Positions 17,842-62,450 of a stretch of 64,000 nt of DNA are shown piece after piece. The translations under genes were made by a program, and so were the position numbers. This DNA is from Escherichia coli (GTDB lineage Bacteria; Pseudomonadota; Gammaproteobacteria; Enterobacterales; Enterobacteriaceae). How positions within the stretch are numbered: position 1 is the first letter of the stretch; the number at the start of each line of letters is the position of its first letter. Under the pieces are notes generated by a model. That model was given only the letters and a program-made list of their open reading frames with translations. It made no database searches and was not told the DNA's origin. The stretch is taken from the NCBI GenBank assembly GCA_902500205.1, contig GCA_902500205.1_4868.1; one strand, written 5' to 3'.

Positions 17842-17852
17842 TTAGACTGGCG

Positions 17853-17893
17853 AATCCCCCACTTCGGTGGGGGATTTACCCTTTCTTTTTTTG
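17853..17893 (+). terminator. Rho-independent terminator
   Basis: Hairpin aatcccccac-TTCG-gtgggggatt plus T-run. Confidence 0.75.
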
Positions 17894-17909
17894 TCTCGGA
17901 TTAGAAAAG

Positions 17910-17935
17910 ATTTCAGATATATATTACCTAGGTGA
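17910..17935 (+). promoter_or_regulatory. Phage promoter-like element, class 1 (ATTTCAGATATATATTACCTAGGTGA)
   Basis: Exact 26-mer also at 27030 and, with one mismatch, at 55847; always after a terminator and before a gene. Confidence 0.55.
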
Positions 17936-17977
17936 GATTGCATTGGTAATCTTTTAACCGACTATCACTTAAGGAAT

Positions 17978-18739
17978 ATGAAAATGAAAACTATCAATCT
18001 GCTCACTCTGGCTAATGGCTCTATCGAACGTAACGAAGACGACGGTGCTATCCTGCAAGCAACCAACGGCTTTAAAATTATACTGTCCCCAATTCAATTC
18101 ACCGGCTTACAAGTCTGGCTGCGCGAAATCAACAAACGCAAACTGCCGCGCCGTATGGCGGTTGGTGACCTGCTCTTTACACTGGATAACGTTGACGGTG
18201 TTAAACCGGAACTGTACGAAGTTCAGTACAAAGCCGCAGTCGATACACTGCGACTGAAGAAAGGGGAAGAAATCAAATTCATTCCGGTGACCTATAATGG
18301 TAACACTTACCTGCAGATGGAAGACACCCCGTTCGCTGTGCACGTCACTGACACTGTTGTTGAACTGGCCATTGCCATTGGTCTGGTTGCGACTCCGGCG
18401 GTACTGGAAGTCAGCGAAGATCCACTGCAGGATTTCGGTACGCTGTTCGAAACCGTGCTGGGTGGCATGAAGCTCGGGAACATCACCAAGGTCATCCGCC
18501 GTATTCCGATTCGGAATGCGCAGCCGAAAGTGATGACGCTGGCAGAAAGCATGACGGAACACCCGGAGCTGACTGCTGAAGAAATTCAGGCGCAAGAAGT
18601 CGCAGCTGAAGAAGAACGTCAGAACGCCCAGCGTGAAGCCATGAAGCCGTTCCGTGGTTTCCTGGATGCTATCTTCGACTGTGCGAACTCGCTGATGAAA
18701 CCAGTTGAAGTGAAAACCGCTGAAGAACCAGCAGCGTAA
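17978..18739 (+). CDS. Hypothetical protein
   Basis: ORF after promoter element; second ATG at 17984 has better RBS spacing. Confidence 0.5.
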   Translation: MKMKTINLLTLANGSIERNEDDGAILQATNGFKIILSPIQFTGLQVWLREINKRKLPRRMAVGDLLFTLDNVDGVKPELYEVQYKAAVDTLRLKKGEEIKFIPVTYNGNTYLQMEDTPFAVHVTDTVVELAIAIGLVATPAVLEVSEDPLQDFGTLFETVLGGMKLGNITKVIRRIPIRNAQPKVMTLAESMTEHPELTAEEIQAQEVAAEEERQNAQREAMKPFRGFLDAIFDCANSLMKPVEVKTAEEPAA

Positions 18740-18797
18740 ATATTACGTTAGCCTGAAACCGTATGTAATCGACCACTAATCTTAAGGAGTATTTATA

Positions 18798-19343
18798 ATG
18801 AAACGTGTCAATCTTAAAGATATTATTAGCGTAAGTAACGATAAATCATCGCCCCTTTGGGATGAGGTTACTACGCTGCAATTTAGTACCAGTGTCATGT
18901 CAATCCCACGTCCAGTTATGATTGGTTTGGGCGTATTCATTTTAGAATGTGACCGTCGCTCAGCAGGCACGCACATTCTAACGTACGGTGGGTACGAGTT
19001 TGTCGTCGAAAGCGAACTTAACAAACATTGCTCAGAGGGCATCATCGGTCTTTGGAAATACTTAATCGATGCGGGATTGTCCGACATGTCTAAAGTCTGT
19101 AGTCACGATTACGGTAAGTTGGAACATTTTGTTCGTCGTAACGGTGAGCGTGTTCCGGTGACGATTGATGGTTACCAGACCAAAATGGTCACCGCGCCTT
19201 ACAGCGCTGAGGGGATACGTGCAACGCTTTACATTCGCCAGACGCTCGTACGTGATGACCTGTTAGACGAAGCAGAGCAAACTCTACATGGTCGTGTTGT
19301 GAACCTCGCACCGTCTTACGACGCGCAGCGTATGGTTCAATGA
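18798..19343 (+). CDS. Hypothetical protein
   Basis: RBS CTTAAGGAGTATT; 181 aa. Confidence 0.55.
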   Translation: MKRVNLKDIISVSNDKSSPLWDEVTTLQFSTSVMSIPRPVMIGLGVFILECDRRSAGTHILTYGGYEFVVESELNKHCSEGIIGLWKYLIDAGLSDMSKVCSHDYGKLEHFVRRNGERVPVTIDGYQTKMVTAPYSAEGIRATLYIRQTLVRDDLLDEAEQTLHGRVVNLAPSYDAQRMVQ

Positions 19344-19350
19344 TTTAATA

Positions 19351-19379
19351 AGGTGGCCTAACAAGCCACCTTCTTTTTT
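19351..19379 (+). terminator. Rho-independent terminator
   Basis: Hairpin aggtggc-ctaacaa-gccacct plus T-run. Confidence 0.6.
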
Positions 19380-19390
19380 GGGATTGTGTG

Positions 19391-19762
19391 ATGACTGATA
19401 AATTTAAATTTGAGATGACGCCAGAAACCGCAAACGTAGAACCGCAGATTCGCCTCCGTGTACGAGATGACGAATACTGTCTAGCGATAGTTGAAGAAGA
19501 CCTGGCAGAGGCCTTGTTGCTGCTCGGCGACAGAGAATGGCTTGGCACGCTAACTATTAGGCTTAAGAGGCCGTTGGTTGGTAGTGGGATGTTTGCAGGT
19601 TGCTGTACGAACAGTCTGTTGGTCGAAGTGGATGCCAGAACGGTATCACTGTCGGTGATTCTGGACTATCCGGTGACATTCTCGTATAGCCGTCTTGAAT
19701 TTAGTCGTTATTTACGCCACGCAATGAAAGAATTATCTAAAGCCCGTAGGAGCAAACCGTGA
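19391..19762 (+). CDS. Hypothetical protein
   Basis: ATG 19391; stop overlaps GTG start of DHFR. Confidence 0.5.
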   Translation: MTDKFKFEMTPETANVEPQIRLRVRDDEYCLAIVEEDLAEALLLLGDREWLGTLTIRLKRPLVGSGMFAGCCTNSLLVEVDARTVSLSVILDYPVTFSYSRLEFSRYLRHAMKELSKARRSKP

Positions 19763-20310
19763 AACTCTCTATTATCGTCGCGATGGACCGCAACAACGCC
19801 ATCGGTAAAAACAATGAACTGCCGTGGCGTCTGCCTGCCGACCTGGCTAACTTTAAGGCAATCACCACAGGGAAGAACGTTATCATGGGCAGTAAGACCT
19901 GGGAATCGTTAGGTTGTCGTCCTTTGCCTAACCGCGGCAACTTAATTGTTACTCGTAACCCAGAAGGGTATATCAGTGGCCGGGAAGAACACACGGACAT
20001 GCGTTTGGTGACGTTTCACACGAGTATTGATTTAGCCATCAAAGCTCTGGAACGTATCGAGAAAGATACCGGAAAAGAGCAAGAGGTGATGATTATTGGT
20101 GGCGCATCAGTTTATCAACAAACCCTCGCTCGTGCGGATCGTATTTATCTATCGCGTATTGACATTGCTGTTGAAGGTGCAGATGCTTTCTTCCCAGAAA
20201 TCGACAGAGATGTTTTTCAAGTCGACTACACCATGACCCATTTACCCGACGGCCAGAAACACACGCACCGTTGGACGTATCAAATTTTAAATCGTATCGC
20301 TGGAGTTTAA
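19759..20310 (+). CDS. Dihydrofolate reductase
   Basis: GTG start with TAGGAG RBS; N-terminus LSIIVAMDRNNAIGKNNELPWRLPADL and MIIGGASVYQ match the DHFR fold signature. Confidence 0.85.
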   Translation: MKLSIIVAMDRNNAIGKNNELPWRLPADLANFKAITTGKNVIMGSKTWESLGCRPLPNRGNLIVTRNPEGYISGREEHTDMRLVTFHTSIDLAIKALERIEKDTGKEQEVMIIGGASVYQQTLARADRIYLSRIDIAVEGADAFFPEIDRDVFQVDYTMTHLPDGQKHTHRWTYQILNRIAGV

Positions 20311-20311
20311 A

Positions 20312-20641
20312 GTGGAAAAGAAATCTGTTAAGGGTTACGTGATGGAAGTAACCCCAAAAGCGGCTGAACTGGCGAGAGAATATACCGGATGTATCGTGCC
20401 ACTGACCTCAATCGTGGTGTGTGAGGGTTCCTTCTATCTCATCTTCGGCAGTAATGAGCCGGTCTATGCGTACATCGATGACCCTGATCAAGTTACAGCC
20501 CTCTCTATTGCGATGGGTAAAAGATTATCAGACAAGATGATTGAATTCGTTGTCGGGAAAACGATGGACATTATCCGCAATCCGGTTGGACACAGCGGAA
20601 TAAAATGTAAGAAGTGGCAGCTAGCTTGGCTGGCACACTAA
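20312..20641 (+). CDS. Hypothetical protein
   Basis: GTG 20312 with GGAG RBS; alternative ATG 20342. Confidence 0.45.
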   Translation: MEKKSVKGYVMEVTPKAAELAREYTGCIVPLTSIVVCEGSFYLIFGSNEPVYAYIDDPDQVTALSIAMGKRLSDKMIEFVVGKTMDIIRNPVGHSGIKCKKWQLAWLAH

Positions 20642-20668
20642 ACGGTTATCTTCTTAAGGAGTATTAAA

Positions 20669-21259
20669 ATGCTTAGTGAACGTGCGCCCCGTTTAGAAGC
20701 GGCGGTATTGAAAATTGAACGTGTGAATATCAAATTGTTATCGAACGATGTTGGTCGGGCATCGTACAGTGACTTATGGAGTATCCCCGCACCACCGCGT
20801 ACGTTGGTGGTGAACTGGTTAACGAATCGTTTGGGCTCATGCGATGTTAAAGCCAAGGATGTCGTACTAACGCTACCTGACGGCAAAACAACTACCGGCG
20901 ATGTGTTGATTGCCAGTGGTTCTAAATTGCGTATGGGCGATATTCGTTTGGGTGAGTCCTATCTTCCGGACGGTATGCGACCTATGCCGATTGGCGAGGT
21001 AGAAAACCGAATTCTGGAAAAAGAAAGAGTGCTGGCGTTCATACGCCGCCCTCCGGATAGCACGGTGTCGTTTAAGCAACGTAAACCGGCTGCAGACAAC
21101 ACACCCGTTGTCGAGTGGCTCGAAAAGTATTTTGGCGAATATGGCATCGGTCCTGATGAGGTCATTCTCATCAACGGCCACGCCATGATGCCGTTTAAGC
21201 CCAGCCCGTATTACACGATGGGACAACTGCGCGCTTCCTTCAAAGGGAAAGCACGCTAA
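20669..21259 (+). CDS. Hypothetical protein
   Basis: RBS CTTAAGGAGTATT; 196 aa. Confidence 0.55.
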   Translation: MLSERAPRLEAAVLKIERVNIKLLSNDVGRASYSDLWSIPAPPRTLVVNWLTNRLGSCDVKAKDVVLTLPDGKTTTGDVLIASGSKLRMGDIRLGESYLPDGMRPMPIGEVENRILEKERVLAFIRRPPDSTVSFKQRKPAADNTPVVEWLEKYFGEYGIGPDEVILINGHAMMPFKPSPYYTMGQLRASFKGKAR

Positions 21260-26864: not shown

Positions 26865-26871
26865 AAGTGTG

Positions 26872-26907
26872 CCTGGTCTCCTTGTGAGACCAGGTCTCTT
26901 TATTTTA
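26872..26907 (+). terminator. Rho-independent terminator
   Basis: Hairpin cctggtctc-cttgt-gagaccagg plus T-rich tail. Confidence 0.65.
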
Positions 26908-26908
26908 G

Positions 26909-27010
26909 CCCTCTAAACGCACTCACAACCTTCTAAAGCCTCTCTAACGGTAGAACGACCCTCTAAAGTGATAAAAGCTCTCAAAACGCGTTTGAGAGCG
27001 TTATAGAGGG
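26909..27010 (+). repeat. Intergenic direct-repeat block (CYCTCTAAA x4) with internal perfect palindrome and inverted terminal copy
   Basis: ccctctaaacg 26909, ccttctaaagcc 26929, ctctctaacgg 26940, ccctctaaagtg 26959, palindrome gctctcaaaacgcgtttgagagc 26977-26999, inverted ttatagaggg 27001. Confidence 0.5.
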
Positions 27011-27029
27011 TGTACTCTGAATAAAAATA

Positions 27030-27055
27030 ATTTCAGATATATATTACCTAGGTGA
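27030..27055 (+). promoter_or_regulatory. Phage promoter-like element, class 1
   Basis: Identical 26-mer to 17910..17935. Confidence 0.55.
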
Positions 27056-27106
27056 TAGAAGACAATCTATCAACTCAATCGACTATTAATCTAAAGGAGT
27101 ATTGCC

Positions 27107-27250
27107 ATGTTAACTCGTAACCATAAACGTGCCATCTTCGCCATCGTTGCTGTTGTTGCTTTCGCGGTACTGTCTATCACTGTAACTCAAGATTACAACA
27201 AGTGCATCGATAACGGTAACTCTGTTGCCATGTGTACAGGTCGCGGCTAA
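27107..27250 (+). CDS. Small membrane protein (47 aa, one TM helix); not in ORF track
   Basis: AAGGAG RBS; my translation MLTRNHKRAIFAIVAVVAFAVLSITVTQDYNKCIDNGNSVAMCTGRG; stop overlaps next start (TAATG). Confidence 0.5.
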   Translation: MLTRNHKRAIFAIVAVVAFAVLSITVTQDYNKCIDNGNSVAMCTGRG

Positions 27251-27432
27251 TGGACTTTTCTGATGCGCAGTTTGCCGAGTTCTTATCTCACCCGCGTGTT
27301 AAACGTGAGTGGGATAATCTCACTAACGGTGTTCGTCGTCAGGACGAAGAAGAAATCGTTCACGTTACCGCACAAGTCTTACTCGTCTCACCGACAGGTA
27401 ATGTGTTTCCAATGCAGCAGGAGATTTACTAA
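27250..27432 (+). CDS. Small hypothetical protein (60 aa)
   Basis: In-frame ATG of track ORF 27232; coupled to flanking genes. Confidence 0.45.
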   Translation: MDFSDAQFAEFLSHPRVKREWDNLTNGVRRQDEEEIVHVTAQVLLVSPTGNVFPMQQEIY

Positions 27433-27620
27433 TGGGCGTTTTAGTTAATTACGATGGTAAAAACGGAATCGTGCTCCGCGAAGTGGAAGATAACGAAACA
27501 GTAGAGGTGAATCCGCAAACCTCAGAACGTACGTTTATCGTGGGGCCGAAAAGCGCACTACCGAAGCCGGACTGGAAAGAAGAGCTGGCGAAGTTCCGTG
27601 GGGAACTCGGGAAGAAGTAG
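27432..27620 (+). CDS. Small hypothetical protein (62 aa)
   Basis: TAATG coupling with previous gene; followed by terminator. Confidence 0.5.
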   Translation: MGVLVNYDGKNGIVLREVEDNETVEVNPQTSERTFIVGPKSALPKPDWKEELAKFRGELGKK

Positions 27621-34026: not shown

Positions 34027-34057
34027 TAATCCGTAAGGATTACGTTGCCTAAGATTA

Positions 34058-34096
34058 GCTTACTCCCTTCGGGGAGTAAGCTTTTTCTTTTTTTCT
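34058..34096 (+). terminator. Rho-independent terminator
   Basis: Hairpin gcttactccc-TTCG-gggagtaagc plus long T-run. Confidence 0.8.
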
Positions 34097-34104
34097 AAAA
34101 ATTT

Positions 34105-34129
34105 ATAGATAGATATTATCTTAGGGAGA
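34105..34129 (+). promoter_or_regulatory. Phage promoter-like element, class 2 (ATAGATAGATATTATCTTAGGGAGA)
   Basis: Related copies at 34304, 54150, 62427. Confidence 0.5.
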
Positions 34130-34161: not shown

Positions 34162-34245
34162 ATGGAAGTCAATTTAGAGAGATCAAGACTAGTTGCACCG
34201 ATGTTTGATGGGCGCGGTTTTATGGCGAACGGTCACCACGTTTGA
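34162..34245 (+). CDS. Tiny ORF (27 aa) between two promoter-like copies; possible leader peptide
   Basis: TTAAGGAGA RBS; MEVNLERSRLVAPMFDGRGFMANGHHV; followed by hairpin 34269-34293. Confidence 0.25.
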   Translation: MEVNLERSRLVAPMFDGRGFMANGHHV

Positions 34246-34303
34246 TACCCTAAAGTTTTTTACGTTAAGGGCACTGGGTATGAACCCGTGCCCAAAGTAA
34301 TCT

Positions 34304-34325
34304 GAGATAGATATTATCTACGTGA
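34304..34325 (+). promoter_or_regulatory. Phage promoter-like element, class 2
   Basis: GAGATAGATATTATCTACGTGA. Confidence 0.45.
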
Positions 34326-45059: not shown

Positions 45060-45939
45060 CACCAAAGTTTACGATGGTAAACTGTCAACAGTGACTCTTA
45101 ACGCGATGCGACTTACGACCGCGTTATTGACAGGTGCTGACGTGCAGTACCCACAGAAATCCACGATGAACGAGTTTTATAAACTCATGACCTCGAAAGT
45201 TCCCGATGGCGCTACACGTCCGCATTTAGGATACATGTGCGTGGGTAACCGTGGTCACATCGTTGATCAGTCTGATGTTGTGGCAGACGTTGTTCCTGTC
45301 GCGAAATCCCCGATTACGTCAGGGATGTTCTCGCGCGTTCCATTGGTACTGCGTACGTTGGATAATGACTTGTCTGATGAGCAACGTAAACAGTACGCTT
45401 TCCGTACTCGTGAAACTATCGGCGCGCGGGATTACTGGGCGTATTATCTGAAACGTATCGACATGCGCGCAGTGAAGACCACTGACCTGGATATCACTCG
45501 CGAAAACGGTGTTGAAACCGTCAAAGATTTCGTCTATACCGATGCGGAACTGAACCCGGTACCGAAAGAACTCCCAGACTACGATTACGACGATGACGGC
45601 ACTGTAGAGATCCCCGACGGTCGTTATGTTGAATCGGGCGCAGACCTGGTGATTCCATGGACTGAGTTTGATGTTCAGGAATACATGAACGTGACGGCGA
45701 TTCTACGTGGTACGCCACGCAGTTCGATTATCTCTGAAATTGCGCTGTGCTCTGGCGTTGATACCCCTGAAACGGGTGAGTCGGCTACCGGTTCACAGTT
45801 CAGCTACGACGAAGCTATCGGTGTGCAGGCGTTGTACTACATCTCCCTGTTCACTAACCTGGCACAGACCAACGATCGTCTGTCACTGACCATCCGTATC
45901 GGCCAGCCGGCACCGTGGTTCTTAGGGACAGCTAACTGA
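45052..45939 (+). CDS. Hypothetical protein
   Basis: 295-aa ORF, overlaps neighbours. Confidence 0.5.
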   Translation: MANTKVYDGKLSTVTLNAMRLTTALLTGADVQYPQKSTMNEFYKLMTSKVPDGATRPHLGYMCVGNRGHIVDQSDVVADVVPVAKSPITSGMFSRVPLVLRTLDNDLSDEQRKQYAFRTRETIGARDYWAYYLKRIDMRAVKTTDLDITRENGVETVKDFVYTDAELNPVPKELPDYDYDDDGTVEIPDGRYVESGADLVIPWTEFDVQEYMNVTAILRGTPRSSIISEIALCSGVDTPETGESATGSQFSYDEAIGVQALYYISLFTNLAQTNDRLSLTIRIGQPAPWFLGTAN

Positions 45940-54110: not shown

Positions 54111-54149
54111 ACCCACTCCTTCGGGAGTGGGTCGACTCTATTCTTTTTT
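54111..54149 (+). terminator. Rho-independent terminator
   Basis: Hairpin acccactcc-TTCG-ggagtgggt plus T-run. Confidence 0.75.
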
Positions 54150-54172
54150 GGATAGATGTTATCTTAGGGAGA
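54150..54172 (+). promoter_or_regulatory. Phage promoter-like element, class 2
   Basis: GGATAGATGTTATCTTAGGGAGA immediately after terminator. Confidence 0.5.
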
Positions 54173-54266
54173 CGTGCAAAAATTACGTTTCATCCTTAGC
54201 ATATGCTAGAAGCCGTTGTGAGTCGGTTAAAACTCACCAACTTAAACTTAAAAGCGAGTAAACAAA

Positions 54267-55031
54267 ATGTCAAAACTCAATAAAGCAGCAACCAAAGAAT
54301 GGCTTTCCGTACCTACCGCAGATGGTCAGTATCGCTACGTATTCACGTATGACGAAAATGACCTGACGGCAAAAGGTATTCCGCACATGTTAAGTCACAA
54401 ACTGATTAACAGCGTGACCGGTGCCACCTTAGTAGGTTCCGGCGGAAGGACAATCTTTTGTGCCCCCAGTTGGGATCAAACTGAACTGACCAAGAAAATG
54501 CTCGGTGAACTCCGGGCGGTTTCCGCACGTCTGTTCTTTAAGCTGATTGCCAGAAAACCGGCGCTATGGGATGCATGGTCTCAACACAATCTCGAGGCAT
54601 TGCGTGGGGAGTGTCTGAATTACGTATTGGTCGAAGAAGTGATTGATAACTTCTTCGCTAACGTGATGAAAACCGAACGACTGCGTAAGCCGAACACCGA
54701 CGGTTATTCGTTTGTCTCCGTTAAGAGCAGCGAACTGATTCGGGGTGAGTTTGCAGGGCATGTCCTTTCGGTAACTCGGAACCTGAGTTTCTTTGGCCAG
54801 CCTTTCAGTGAGCCAGTTGTTCAGGTAACTTATGATTTCCGTTTACCGTTTACTGTTCGGAATGAGTTTGACCCAGGTCAAGTTTCGTTGAAGTTTTTAT
54901 ATCCTCTCCAGTCATGGCCGTTATTGAAGAGGTTCTTAGCTGAGCCCCGTGTAGCTGCGGTGCTGCAAGCGTGGATTGATTCATGGCCAGAAGGCATTGA
55001 GGAAAAATCGAAAACGCGAGTTGACTTCTAA
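54267..55031 (+). CDS. Hypothetical protein
   Basis: 254-aa ORF. Confidence 0.55.
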   Translation: MSKLNKAATKEWLSVPTADGQYRYVFTYDENDLTAKGIPHMLSHKLINSVTGATLVGSGGRTIFCAPSWDQTELTKKMLGELRAVSARLFFKLIARKPALWDAWSQHNLEALRGECLNYVLVEEVIDNFFANVMKTERLRKPNTDGYSFVSVKSSELIRGEFAGHVLSVTRNLSFFGQPFSEPVVQVTYDFRLPFTVRNEFDPGQVSLKFLYPLQSWPLLKRFLAEPRVAAVLQAWIDSWPEGIEEKSKTRVDF

Positions 55032-55766: not shown

Positions 55767-55803
55767 CCCTCTTACCTTCGGGTAAGAGGGTATTGTCTTT
55801 TTT
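55767..55803 (+). terminator. Rho-independent terminator
   Basis: Hairpin ccctcttacc-TTCG-ggtaagaggg (same stem as 28966) plus T-run. Confidence 0.75.
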
Positions 55804-55846: not shown

Positions 55847-55872
55847 ATTTCAGATATATATTACTTAGGTGA
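55847..55872 (+). promoter_or_regulatory. Phage promoter-like element, class 1
   Basis: ATTTCAGATATATATTACTTAGGTGA; downstream leader AATCGACTATTAATCTAAAGGAGTATT shared with 27078 copy. Confidence 0.55.
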
Positions 55873-55922
55873 GAGTTACTACTAAACTCTCTAATCGACT
55901 ATTAATCTAAAGGAGTATTCTA

Positions 55923-56288
55923 ATGCGTTTTAAACATCAAACCGTTGTGTTGGCAAAGAAAGCATTTCTGGTTCGTCTCTCTTACATTATTACTCGTGTC
56001 ACTGCGAAGGATGTTACGCAGAAAGACATTGCATTGTTGGTAGGCTGCTCACCGTCACAAATCTCTGCGATTAAAAATGAACGCGAGAAAGCCGTGACTA
56101 TCGAAACTCTGATGCGTGTTGCCGATACACTGCGCCTGAATTACGAAATCGTTTACCGTTCCATTAACGGCAAATGCCGCCATAGCTTCAAAATTGAATC
56201 CTGCACCGACTACATGAATAACTGTCCTATCCGGGTACGAGAAACAGGACTTAAAGTCATGGCACGTAAACCTTCTGCAGTGATGTAG
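55923..56288 (+). CDS. XRE-family helix-turn-helix transcriptional regulator
   Basis: HTH signature TQKDIALLVGCSPSQISAIKNER; first gene after promoter-like element. Confidence 0.5.
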   Translation: MRFKHQTVVLAKKAFLVRLSYIITRVTAKDVTQKDIALLVGCSPSQISAIKNEREKAVTIETLMRVADTLRLNYEIVYRSINGKCRHSFKIESCTDYMNNCPIRVRETGLKVMARKPSAVM

Positions 56289-56299
56289 GGAGCAAACGT

Positions 56300-56686
56300 A
56301 TGAATTGGTTTGTAAATGGTATCACCCGTCGCGTGATGACGGAAGAGGATGATCGATGTAAACATCTTAAAGTGGGCTCTATAGCCCCGCGCTATACGGC
56401 AGAGTGCGACCCATGGGGCCGCGAAACGTACTACATGTGCGAGAACTGCTGGGAAAAGCTGCAGGCTGAAATTGCAGCTGAAGAAGTGGTCTGCGACGAT
56501 TGCAAAGGTACCTTCCCGAAACGAGATACCGTTGAATGGAAATGGTACGACTTTGACCCCAGTCAAGGGGATAAAGAACTTTGTATCTGTAATAACTGCG
56601 TGTCTTTACCGACACATTTAAACCGTGTAGAGAATGACCGTCGGGCATTTGAACACGACTTTCCAGAAGCAGCTTTCTGGGATTAA
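56300..56686 (+). CDS. Cys-rich zinc-ribbon protein
   Basis: CKHLK...CENCWEK...CDDCKG...CICNNC. Confidence 0.45.
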   Translation: MNWFVNGITRRVMTEEDDRCKHLKVGSIAPRYTAECDPWGRETYYMCENCWEKLQAEIAAEEVVCDDCKGTFPKRDTVEWKWYDFDPSQGDKELCICNNCVSLPTHLNRVENDRRAFEHDFPEAAFWD

Positions 56687-56712
56687 CTAGTGTAAACCTT
56701 AAGGAGTATACC

Positions 56713-57369
56713 ATGGCGAAGGCCCCTAAAACTGTAGCAAAAGATTCAATGGCAAGCAGCGCGGTTAAATCCACAAAAACGCGCACCACTGAATCCACGC
56801 GTACATCTAGCATTCCTAAACCGGATGTAATTGTACCGATCAGCGAGCGTCTGAAAACAATTCACATCGAGCGCGAATATCCGATTGACCTTGGTCAGGA
56901 AATCGTTGCGGTTAACCTTGGTAGCGACGTACGCTTTACCATCTATAAAGGCGCGCATCTGAACAACATGGTGCTAACCCGTGGCGATGAAGTTATCGGT
57001 CTGTCTCGTTACGACACGCAAATCGAAAACATCTATCCGGTGTTTGCAGTAGCGATGTTGCGTTTGTTTATGCAGGATAAAGCCGACCTTTGTGGTCAGC
57101 TTGCGGGTATGGCGGATCGTGTTGGTCATATTCTGCCGACGCTGGTGAAACTGTACCCAGTTACGATTGACGTGGCGTTTACTACGGTAGACAACAACCA
57201 CGGTTATATCGTACTGACCAAAGACGGTAAAGTTATCGCTGGTAATCTGACTGATAACGAAGTGCAGAAGCATATGGACAAATTTGCGTTCATGGTGAAT
57301 CGCTTGGCGCACGTCAGTGTCAAACATTCCGAAACTTGGACGACGCTTGTCTCCAAACCGGAACTGTAA
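56713..57369 (+). CDS. Hypothetical protein
   Basis: RBS CTTAAGGAGTAT; 218 aa. Confidence 0.55.
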   Translation: MAKAPKTVAKDSMASSAVKSTKTRTTESTRTSSIPKPDVIVPISERLKTIHIEREYPIDLGQEIVAVNLGSDVRFTIYKGAHLNNMVLTRGDEVIGLSRYDTQIENIYPVFAVAMLRLFMQDKADLCGQLAGMADRVGHILPTLVKLYPVTIDVAFTTVDNNHGYIVLTKDGKVIAGNLTDNEVQKHMDKFAFMVNRLAHVSVKHSETWTTLVSKPEL

Positions 57370-62414: not shown

Positions 62415-62426
62415 CGCACGACTTTT

Positions 62427-62450
62427 CAGATAGATGTTATTTTACTGAAC
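62427..62450 (+). promoter_or_regulatory. Phage promoter-like element, class 2 variant
   Basis: CAGATAGATGTTATTTTACTGAAC. Confidence 0.4.

Follow-up and report, generated by a model that had tools for sequence, protein, structure and literature searches.

Repeated 26-bp elements of an SPN3US-like jumbo phage as probable early promoters, with a hairpin at the predicted 5' end of their transcripts

Three near-identical copies of a 26-bp element in the genome of an SPN3US-like phage are, with high probability, early promoters that a virion RNA polymerase (RNAP) would read. We searched the window (the whole stretch of 64,000 nucleotides that was analysed) for ATTTCAGATATATATTACCTAGGTGA and found it without mismatches at 17910-17935 and 27030-27055 and, with a single C-to-T mismatch at motif position 19, at 55847-55872, in each case on the plus strand. 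Position 19 is a Y throughout the promoter family to which these copies belong. The window contains no further match with three or fewer mismatches, and 100 dinucleotide shuffles of the window contained none at all. The window search and the shuffles thus bear out the repeat described in the original prediction, two identical copies and one with a single mismatch. That prediction also read the copies as early promoters served by an injected virion RNAP, and comparison with the promoters of related phages, which is comparative rather than experimental evidence, supports this reading.

A 4-kb query from the window matched Salmonella phage SPN3US and its relatives at 97-98% identity and Erwinia jumbo phages at ~80-90%, and a 600-bp query matched phage JN03 at 99%. 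With 97-99% overall identity to SPN3US-group phages, the window corresponds to approximately 38.4-102.4 kb of SPN3US, and on these alignments the source genome is that of an SPN3US-like, phiKZ-related jumbo phage of the genus Seoulvirus. The SPN3US virion RNAP consists of gp42, gp218, gp240, gp241 and gp244, and its non-virion RNAP includes gp35 and gp77 (PMC5105663). RNAP beta-type subunits are annotated in RefSeq within and around the window. The SPN3US-group identity, the RefSeq annotation and the published subunit assignments together indicate that both a virion and a non-virion multisubunit RNAP are encoded.

A relaxed search of the window revealed weaker relatives of the 26-mer. We built a weight matrix iteratively from the 26-mer on the assembled whole SPN3US genome, and this matrix converged on 24 sites on the plus strand and 1 on the minus strand (~25 in total), nearly all of them intergenic and in the same orientation as the next gene. 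The family consensus in SPN3US is aAAnnnnTTTCAGATAGATATTATCTnnGTGA. In the window, the matrix finds seven sites, all on the plus strand and starting at 17910, 27030, 34102, 34300, 54145, 55847 and 62423; these score 35-46 bits against at most 11 bits for everything else, a scan that is a non-independent test because the matrix was trained on a near-identical genome. The earlier count of three copies is correct for the plus-strand 26-mer and an undercount of the family, to which the matrix adds four diverged members in the window.

Copies 1, 2 and 3 (17910, 27030 and 55847) score 45.8, 41.6 and 42.0 bits and belong to a form, class A, that reads TATATATTAC(C/T)TAGGTGA and accounts for seven of the SPN3US-matrix sites, including the three of the original prediction. 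The remaining sites form class B, GATAGATATTATCT. All four diverged members of the window are of class B and on the plus strand, with scores of 35-42 bits: 34102-34127 (42.3 bits) lies just after the terminator of the major-head-protein gene (34057-34082), 34300-34325 (41.1 bits) precedes gp76, gp77 and gp78, 54145-54170 (35.4 bits) is followed by a structured leader of ~100 nt and an ATG at 54267, and 62423-62448 (37.1 bits) has a short leader. Aligning the window sites reveals invariant positions along the whole element, which is ~30 bp long and consists of an A-rich patch, TTTCAGATA, a core near -10 that is TATATTAC in class A (17920-17927 in copy 1) and GATATTAT in diverged members, and CTnnGTGA.

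The two classes appear to be interchangeable. The site of copy 1 is kept at the orthologous position in Erwinia phage Asesino and that of copy 2 in Asesino and phiEaH2, and the orthologue of copy 3, which stands before a helix-turn-helix (HTH) gene in Erwinia phage Huxley, is a class-B-like element. At orthologous sites one class can thus stand in for the other, which argues that they are one functional class. In Erwinia phages of more distant genera (Huxley, Parshik, ChrisDB and others), only the promoter and the part immediately 3' of it in a copy-1 query can be aligned, and the promoter part matches several intergenic places per genome. Huxley also carries the identical 26-mer at another locus, where the flanks can no longer be aligned.

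According to a review of jumbo-phage polymerases, every such phage has a recognisable conserved motif before its presumed early operons, and an AT-rich core of ~10 nt, with its centre near -10, has been confirmed wherever transcripts were profiled. In phiKZ and 201phi2-1, early promoters show conservation at -10, -20 and -30 (PMC11512511), so a conserved element of 26-30 bp is normal for the class. The original prediction had pointed out that the conservation is far longer than that of a sigma70 promoter, which agrees with the ~30 bp usual for phiKZ-type early promoters. Table 2 of PMC7058600 lists TBYAWWWWWTTTCARRYAKATATTATYWAAGTGWA for the predicted N1M2 promoter, BSHAWWWWWTTTYARRYAKATATTATYWWADTG for OBP, ...TTTRARR_BTATATTACDWHDGTG for 201phi2-1 and TATATTAC for phiKZ. 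The element studied here likewise combines an AT-rich core (TATATTAC or KATATTATY) with upstream T/A-rich patches over ~30 bp, and it is found in intergenic positions at operon starts, co-oriented with the genes and in tens of copies per genome.

The likeness to phiKZ and 201phi2-1 extends from the octamer core TATATTAC, which is identical, to the upstream T/A-rich patches and the GTG/TGA end of the motif, as well as to intergenic sites at operon starts, ~25-32 copies per genome and the possession of two multisubunit RNAPs. The original prediction had named the core as matching the early-promoter consensus of phiKZ-like phages, and both Table 2 of PMC7058600 and phiKZ intergenic DNA agree: the first 50 kb of phiKZ contain seven copies of TATATTAC, every one on the plus strand and between genes, and one of these copies precedes PHIKZ054, which has an early-promoter primary transcription start site (TSS; Wicke et al.). 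The SPN3US matrix also finds several sites of 15-28 bits in phiKZ. The two systems differ in their upstream flanks (TTTCAGATA in SPN3US versus TTTAAACAG in phiKZ) and in that most SPN3US members have GATATTATCT rather than TATATTAC as their core. Moreover, the sites of phiKZ and 201phi2-1 have mapped TSSs, whereas SPN3US-type sites are known from sequence, and the hosts are different.

The predicted early promoters of OBP and N1M2, as tabulated in PMC7058600, read AWWWWWTTTCARRYAKATATTATYWAAGTGWA against aAAnnnnTTTCAGATAGATATTATCTnnGTGA in SPN3US and are almost the same across ~30 bp. In N1M2, 31 copies are reported at the starts of early-type operons, including that of an RNAP beta subunit gene. 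These OBP and N1M2 sites are likewise bioinformatic predictions, and copies 1-3 differ from them in having the TATATTAC variant of phiKZ type. By comparison of the motifs, the SPN3US consensus is plainly the same element as the early promoters of N1M2, OBP, 201phi2-1 and phiKZ, and the repeated 26-mer, judged by the same likeness, is a member of the promoter family already described for these phages. A description of the family in the SPN3US group was not found in the literature searched, which did not extend to Ceyssens 2014, Lavysh 2016, Cornelissen 2012 and three transcriptome supplements. According to a 2017 paper, the virion RNAP of the phiKZ-related group had not been purified by then, and our literature search found no later report of a purified virion RNAP from phiKZ-related phages.

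Family sites have terminators upstream and start codons 30-100 nt downstream. The intrinsic terminator of the internal-head-protein gene (17852-17896, with narrower limits of 17852-17877) ends ~14 nt before copy 1. The intrinsic terminators before copies 2 and 3, also on the plus strand, lie at 26871-26906 (narrower limits 26871-26895) and 55767-55803 (narrower limits 55767-55790), at distances of ~124 nt and ~44 nt. A terminator 15-60 nt upstream, as originally claimed for each copy, is therefore present at copies 1 and 3 but not at copy 2, where a nearer hairpin (26977-26999) has no plus-strand T-run and resembles a terminator on the minus strand only. The following ATGs, at 17984, 27107 and 55923, are 74-77 nt from the motif start and 48-51 nt from the motif end, in keeping with the 50-80 nt given earlier.

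Each copy stands at the head of a small gene group. The operon behind copy 1 has six genes (17984-21259), encoding a dihydrofolate reductase (DHFR_1, E 4e-47) and five hypothetical proteins. Three very small genes follow copy 2 (27107-27620), and the first product, of 47 aa, contains a hydrophobic stretch that we read as a putative membrane segment. Behind copy 3 are three genes (55923-57369), for an HTH protein (HTH_3, E 2e-7) and then two hypothetical proteins. No Rfam family reaches its gathering score anywhere in the window, and a tRNA scan of the window returned nothing.

We converted RefSeq tags to original SPN3US gene numbers (266 minus the tag, checked on four known subunits) and asked which genes lie behind family sites. 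In SPN3US, sites precede gp22-23, gp34-35 and gp76-77-78, which covers all the non-virion RNAP genes. The product gp77 is an N-terminal fragment of the non-virion RNAP beta subunit; the identities of gp77 and gp78 come from PMC5105663, and that of gp77 rests on this literature and on RefSeq because Pfam did not recognise it. In SPN3US, the virion RNAP genes, the major head protein and the tail sheath have no family site directly before them, so that the element is found before non-virion RNAP genes and not before late structural genes. A non-virion RNAP cannot transcribe its own genes before it exists, and this placement thus points to the injected enzyme, as supportive rather than strict evidence. 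For the remaining downstream genes, early status is an assumption based on gene type only.

The polymerase, the timing and the +1 proposed here are carried over from phiKZ, 201phi2-1 and OBP. In the published geometry, the AT-rich motif lies ~10 bp upstream of the TSS, and the -2 position is conserved in 201phi2-1. Centring the octamer near -10 would place +1 on the second G of GTGA, and the GTG that closes the 201phi2-1 consensus has the spacing of GTGA here. In short-leader members of the family, the Shine-Dalgarno sequence comes ~9 nt after GTGA, which argues that the start is not much further downstream. We infer that transcription would begin near 17934, 27054 and 55871, within 2 nt in either direction (on the G or A of GTGA); this tolerance of ~2 nt is given because some of the helices considered next extend 1-2 nt upstream of the predicted +1. 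For the four diverged members of the window, the predicted starts are 34126, 34324, 54169 and 62447.

A hairpin begins at the predicted +1 of each of the three copies. On the plus strand, these are GAGATTGC-ATTG-GTAATCTT at 17934-17953 (-6.7 kcal/mol), GATAGA-AGACAA-TCTATC at 27054-27071 and GAGAGTT-ACTACTA-AACTCTC at 55871-55891 (-7.8 kcal/mol). All three are modest (-6 to -8 kcal/mol), and whole leaders folded singly give non-significant z-scores of -0.7 to -1.0. Because single-leader folds give such weak z-scores, the case for the hairpin rests on its positional consistency across instances. We collected matches to CAGATATATATTACNNNNNTGA (a 22-nt pattern with a 5-N gap) from IMG/VR, which yielded 82 distinct instances, mostly on contigs of 205-246 kb, and scored a helix as at least 5 bp with a loop of 3-12 nt. 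A helix starts exactly at the G of TGA (in GTGA) in 41 of the 82 instances, compared with a mean of 6.9 and a maximum of 13 for shuffled downstream sequence. One position upstream, the count is 19, and beyond about +8 it falls to a background of 0-10.

The position of the hairpin is thus kept while its sequence is not. A tally confined to instances with a helix gave 16 different 5' arms and, for each of stem positions 3-8, between three and five pair types. In the copy-2 orthologues of Asesino and phiEaH2, GAGAGA...TCTCTC takes the place of GATAGA/TCTATC, a double compensatory change, and the leader of the Huxley HTH gene, orthologous to that of copy 3, has a wholly different stem, GACATTGA-AAT-TCAATGTC, at the same position. 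Most of the phiKZ early sites that we inspected have no hairpin at +1, so the hairpin is not needed for promoter function in general. The jumbo-phage transcriptome literature, as far as it was accessible to our search, makes no mention of a hairpin in early leaders, and the accessible text of the N1M2 paper (PMC7058600) mentions neither a hairpin nor a leader box. A hairpin at a fixed position after the promoter thus seems to be undescribed.

That the helices have so sharp a 5' boundary agrees with an RNA structure starting together with the transcript. A 5'-terminal hairpin is best known as a protection from 5'-end-dependent decay. Our preferred reading is that the hairpin would act as a 5'-terminal stem-loop shielding early mRNAs from such decay by the host. 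Like the stabilising stem-loops of bacterial and phage mRNAs, for example that of the ompA leader, it would leave few or no unpaired 5' nucleotides and be followed by an open ribosome-binding region. In 41 of the 82 instances, the helix falls at the predicted +1, itself taken from relatives, and would lie within ~0-2 nt of the mRNA 5' end if this +1 holds. It differs from ompA-type leaders in that the 5' end is a predicted one and the stems are short (5-9 bp).

A second shared feature of the leaders is a CGACTAT box, found on the plus strand at 17959-17965, upstream of the Shine-Dalgarno sequence at 17970-17976, in copy 1, at 27080-27086 in copy 2 and at 55896-55902 in copy 3. Copies 2 and 3 have AATCGACTATTAATCTAAAGGAGTATT in identical form and share 27 identical bases of leader between the hairpin and the Shine-Dalgarno sequence. 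In SPN3US, the extended form (A/T)TCGACYATTA is found in approximately eleven leaders, including two internal, promoterless positions of early-type operons, and was not found upstream of structural genes; its SPN3US positions include 57149, 167595 and 224200. Of the 82 instances, 22 carry GAC[CT]AT, for the most part 8-15 nt before AGGA, and the opposite strand has no copy. From the known 3'-terminal sequence of 16S rRNA, the box lies on the wrong side of the Shine-Dalgarno sequence and so could not lengthen its pairing with that rRNA. We considered CGACTAT as a second, later promoter and dropped this candidate, as between genes it is confined to the leaders of early-type operons and does not precede structural genes.

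Two alternative readings keep the sites as phage promoters and change how they would be recognised. As middle-class promoters, they would be read by the non-virion RNAP rather than by the injected enzyme. Nucleotide-metabolism functions downstream, such as DHFR, could be middle genes, and of the non-virion RNAP genes of 201phi2-1, not all stand directly behind an early promoter, some having middle promoters instead. Against this, the sequence fits the published early motifs and not the middle or late ones (in phiKZ, TACT near -22 with an A-rich tract for middle promoters and TATG at the TSS for late ones), and each of the four non-virion RNAP core genes lies behind a family member and needs a promoter that is active before the enzyme exists; we consider middle promoters very unlikely. 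The hairpin itself suggests a comparison with phage N4, whose single-subunit virion RNAP recognises a promoter hairpin situated before the start and having conserved bases in its stem and loop. If the present sites worked in this manner, the inverted repeat would be extruded in the DNA and recognised by the virion polymerase, and transcription would start downstream of it. In common with N4 there are a polymerase injected by the phage and a conserved motif with an inverted repeat next to it, and here the repeat holds a fixed position in about half of the instances, with pairing kept as the sequence varies. However, the polymerase is a multisubunit beta/beta' enzyme, stem and loop vary freely, the repeat runs from the motif end and so lies at or after the predicted start, and the homologous early promoters of phiKZ mostly lack a repeat. 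The short-leader members, with a Shine-Dalgarno sequence ~9 nt after GTGA, need a start at or before that place, and the published geometry sets +1 at the motif end. An N4-type promoter is accordingly rated as less probable than a middle promoter.

A host sigma70 promoter, for which TATATT or TATTAT would serve as the -10 of a host enzyme active right after injection, is less probable again. The core matches TATAAT at five of six positions, including the critical A2 and T6, and the sites are intergenic and upstream of genes. Yet no sigma70-type -35/-10 pair (16-18 bp spacing) or extended TGn -10 overlaps 17910, 27030 or 55847, in line with the original remark that the element has no TTGACA/TATAAT pair, and sigma70-like sites in the region are at or below shuffle expectation. 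The hexamer also leaves ~20 conserved positions (CAGATA, CTnnGTGA) that sigma70 does not explain, the motif is common to phages of Salmonella, Erwinia, Klebsiella and Pseudomonas, and phiKZ development is published to be independent of host RNAP. The least probable reading is that of a repeat with no promoter function, such as the operator of a phage regulator or a recombination cassette for module shuffling. Copies 2 and 3 share both the 26-mer and the 27-nt leader segment in a cassette-like way, the motif has some palindromic character, the gene just after copy 3 encodes an HTH protein, and the succession of terminator and promoter is reminiscent of PeSL cassettes in T4-type phages. This reading leaves unexplained why the sites are so strictly co-oriented with genes, keep a fixed distance from start codons and stand at operon starts after terminators, and why they are identical with promoter consensuses that are backed by TSS mapping in relatives. 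A cassette history would in any case add to promoter function rather than replace it, and cassette copying may explain the shared leader of copies 2 and 3.

Early promoters read by a virion RNAP remain the best explanation as a whole. A multisubunit virion RNAP would enter with the phage DNA and recognise the ~30-bp element, and each promoter, which follows the terminator of the preceding unit, would open a short early-type operon. The transcripts of the three copies would begin directly with a hairpin of 6-8 bp, followed by the GACTAT box and then by an unstructured Shine-Dalgarno region, and the hairpin would shield these early mRNAs from 5'-end-dependent decay in the host. The finding of the promoters is in itself ordinary for phiKZ-related phages and nothing new in principle. 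Its use lies in an early-promoter map of the window, with seven sites and predicted start points, that helps annotation, the choice of early genes to study and the design of reporters or knock-downs. The early-promoter sequence is also almost unchanged between the giant phages that infect Pseudomonas, Klebsiella, Salmonella and Erwinia, as would suit an injected polymerase that is itself conserved.

Leads on how the first phage transcripts are protected or controlled come from the leader box and from the hairpin with its locked position. A tentative proposal, which we think more doubtful than the promoter assignment, is that promoter, +1-locked hairpin and GACYAT box form a conserved early leader module of the SPN3US/Erwinia clade, in which the hairpin would protect or mark the transcripts and the box would be a regulator site. 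If this were so, the hairpin would be a functional 5' RNA structure selected for its pairing rather than its sequence. Transcripts of the virion RNAP would then be protected from decay, or marked for handling on leaving the early infection vesicle, and the GACYAT box would be the site of a phage translational or RNA-processing regulator of early genes.

Several minor features were noted at or near family sites. The downstream half of the class-A motif (17924-17935 and 27044-27055) is the near-palindrome TTACCTAGGTGA, centred on CTAG. We rejected it as a dimer-binding site, as its two middle positions vary across the family, and the near-palindrome is probably incidental. Between divergent genes of SPN3US (NC_027402.1), a partly palindromic element at 191597-191625 has a family score on both strands and may be an overlapping bidirectional early promoter. 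In the 124-bp spacer between the terminator and copy 2, a CYCTMWAA-like word recurs at 26907-27011, about five times in direct and twice in inverted orientation; a conserved binding array of such CTCTAAA-like repeats was rejected, as they are not kept in Erwinia phage Asesino.

Features of note follow three of the other promoters. The phiKZ early promoter before the nuclear-shell gene PHIKZ054 has a hairpin that starts at the predicted +1 (45568-45610, z = -3.2). The promoter at 34102 is followed by a 27-codon open reading frame (34162-34245) with a strong TAAGGAG ribosome-binding site, which is unannotated in SPN3US and whose matching place in Asesino is occupied by a 269-aa gene, ASESINO_92; this frame may be a remnant or a real small gene. 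Behind the promoter at 54145, the leader of ~100 nt (54169-54266) has a predicted fold of three or four hairpins (-21.3 kcal/mol, z = -2.2). Of these hairpins, the first begins at the predicted +1, and the leader could be regulatory or a small RNA.
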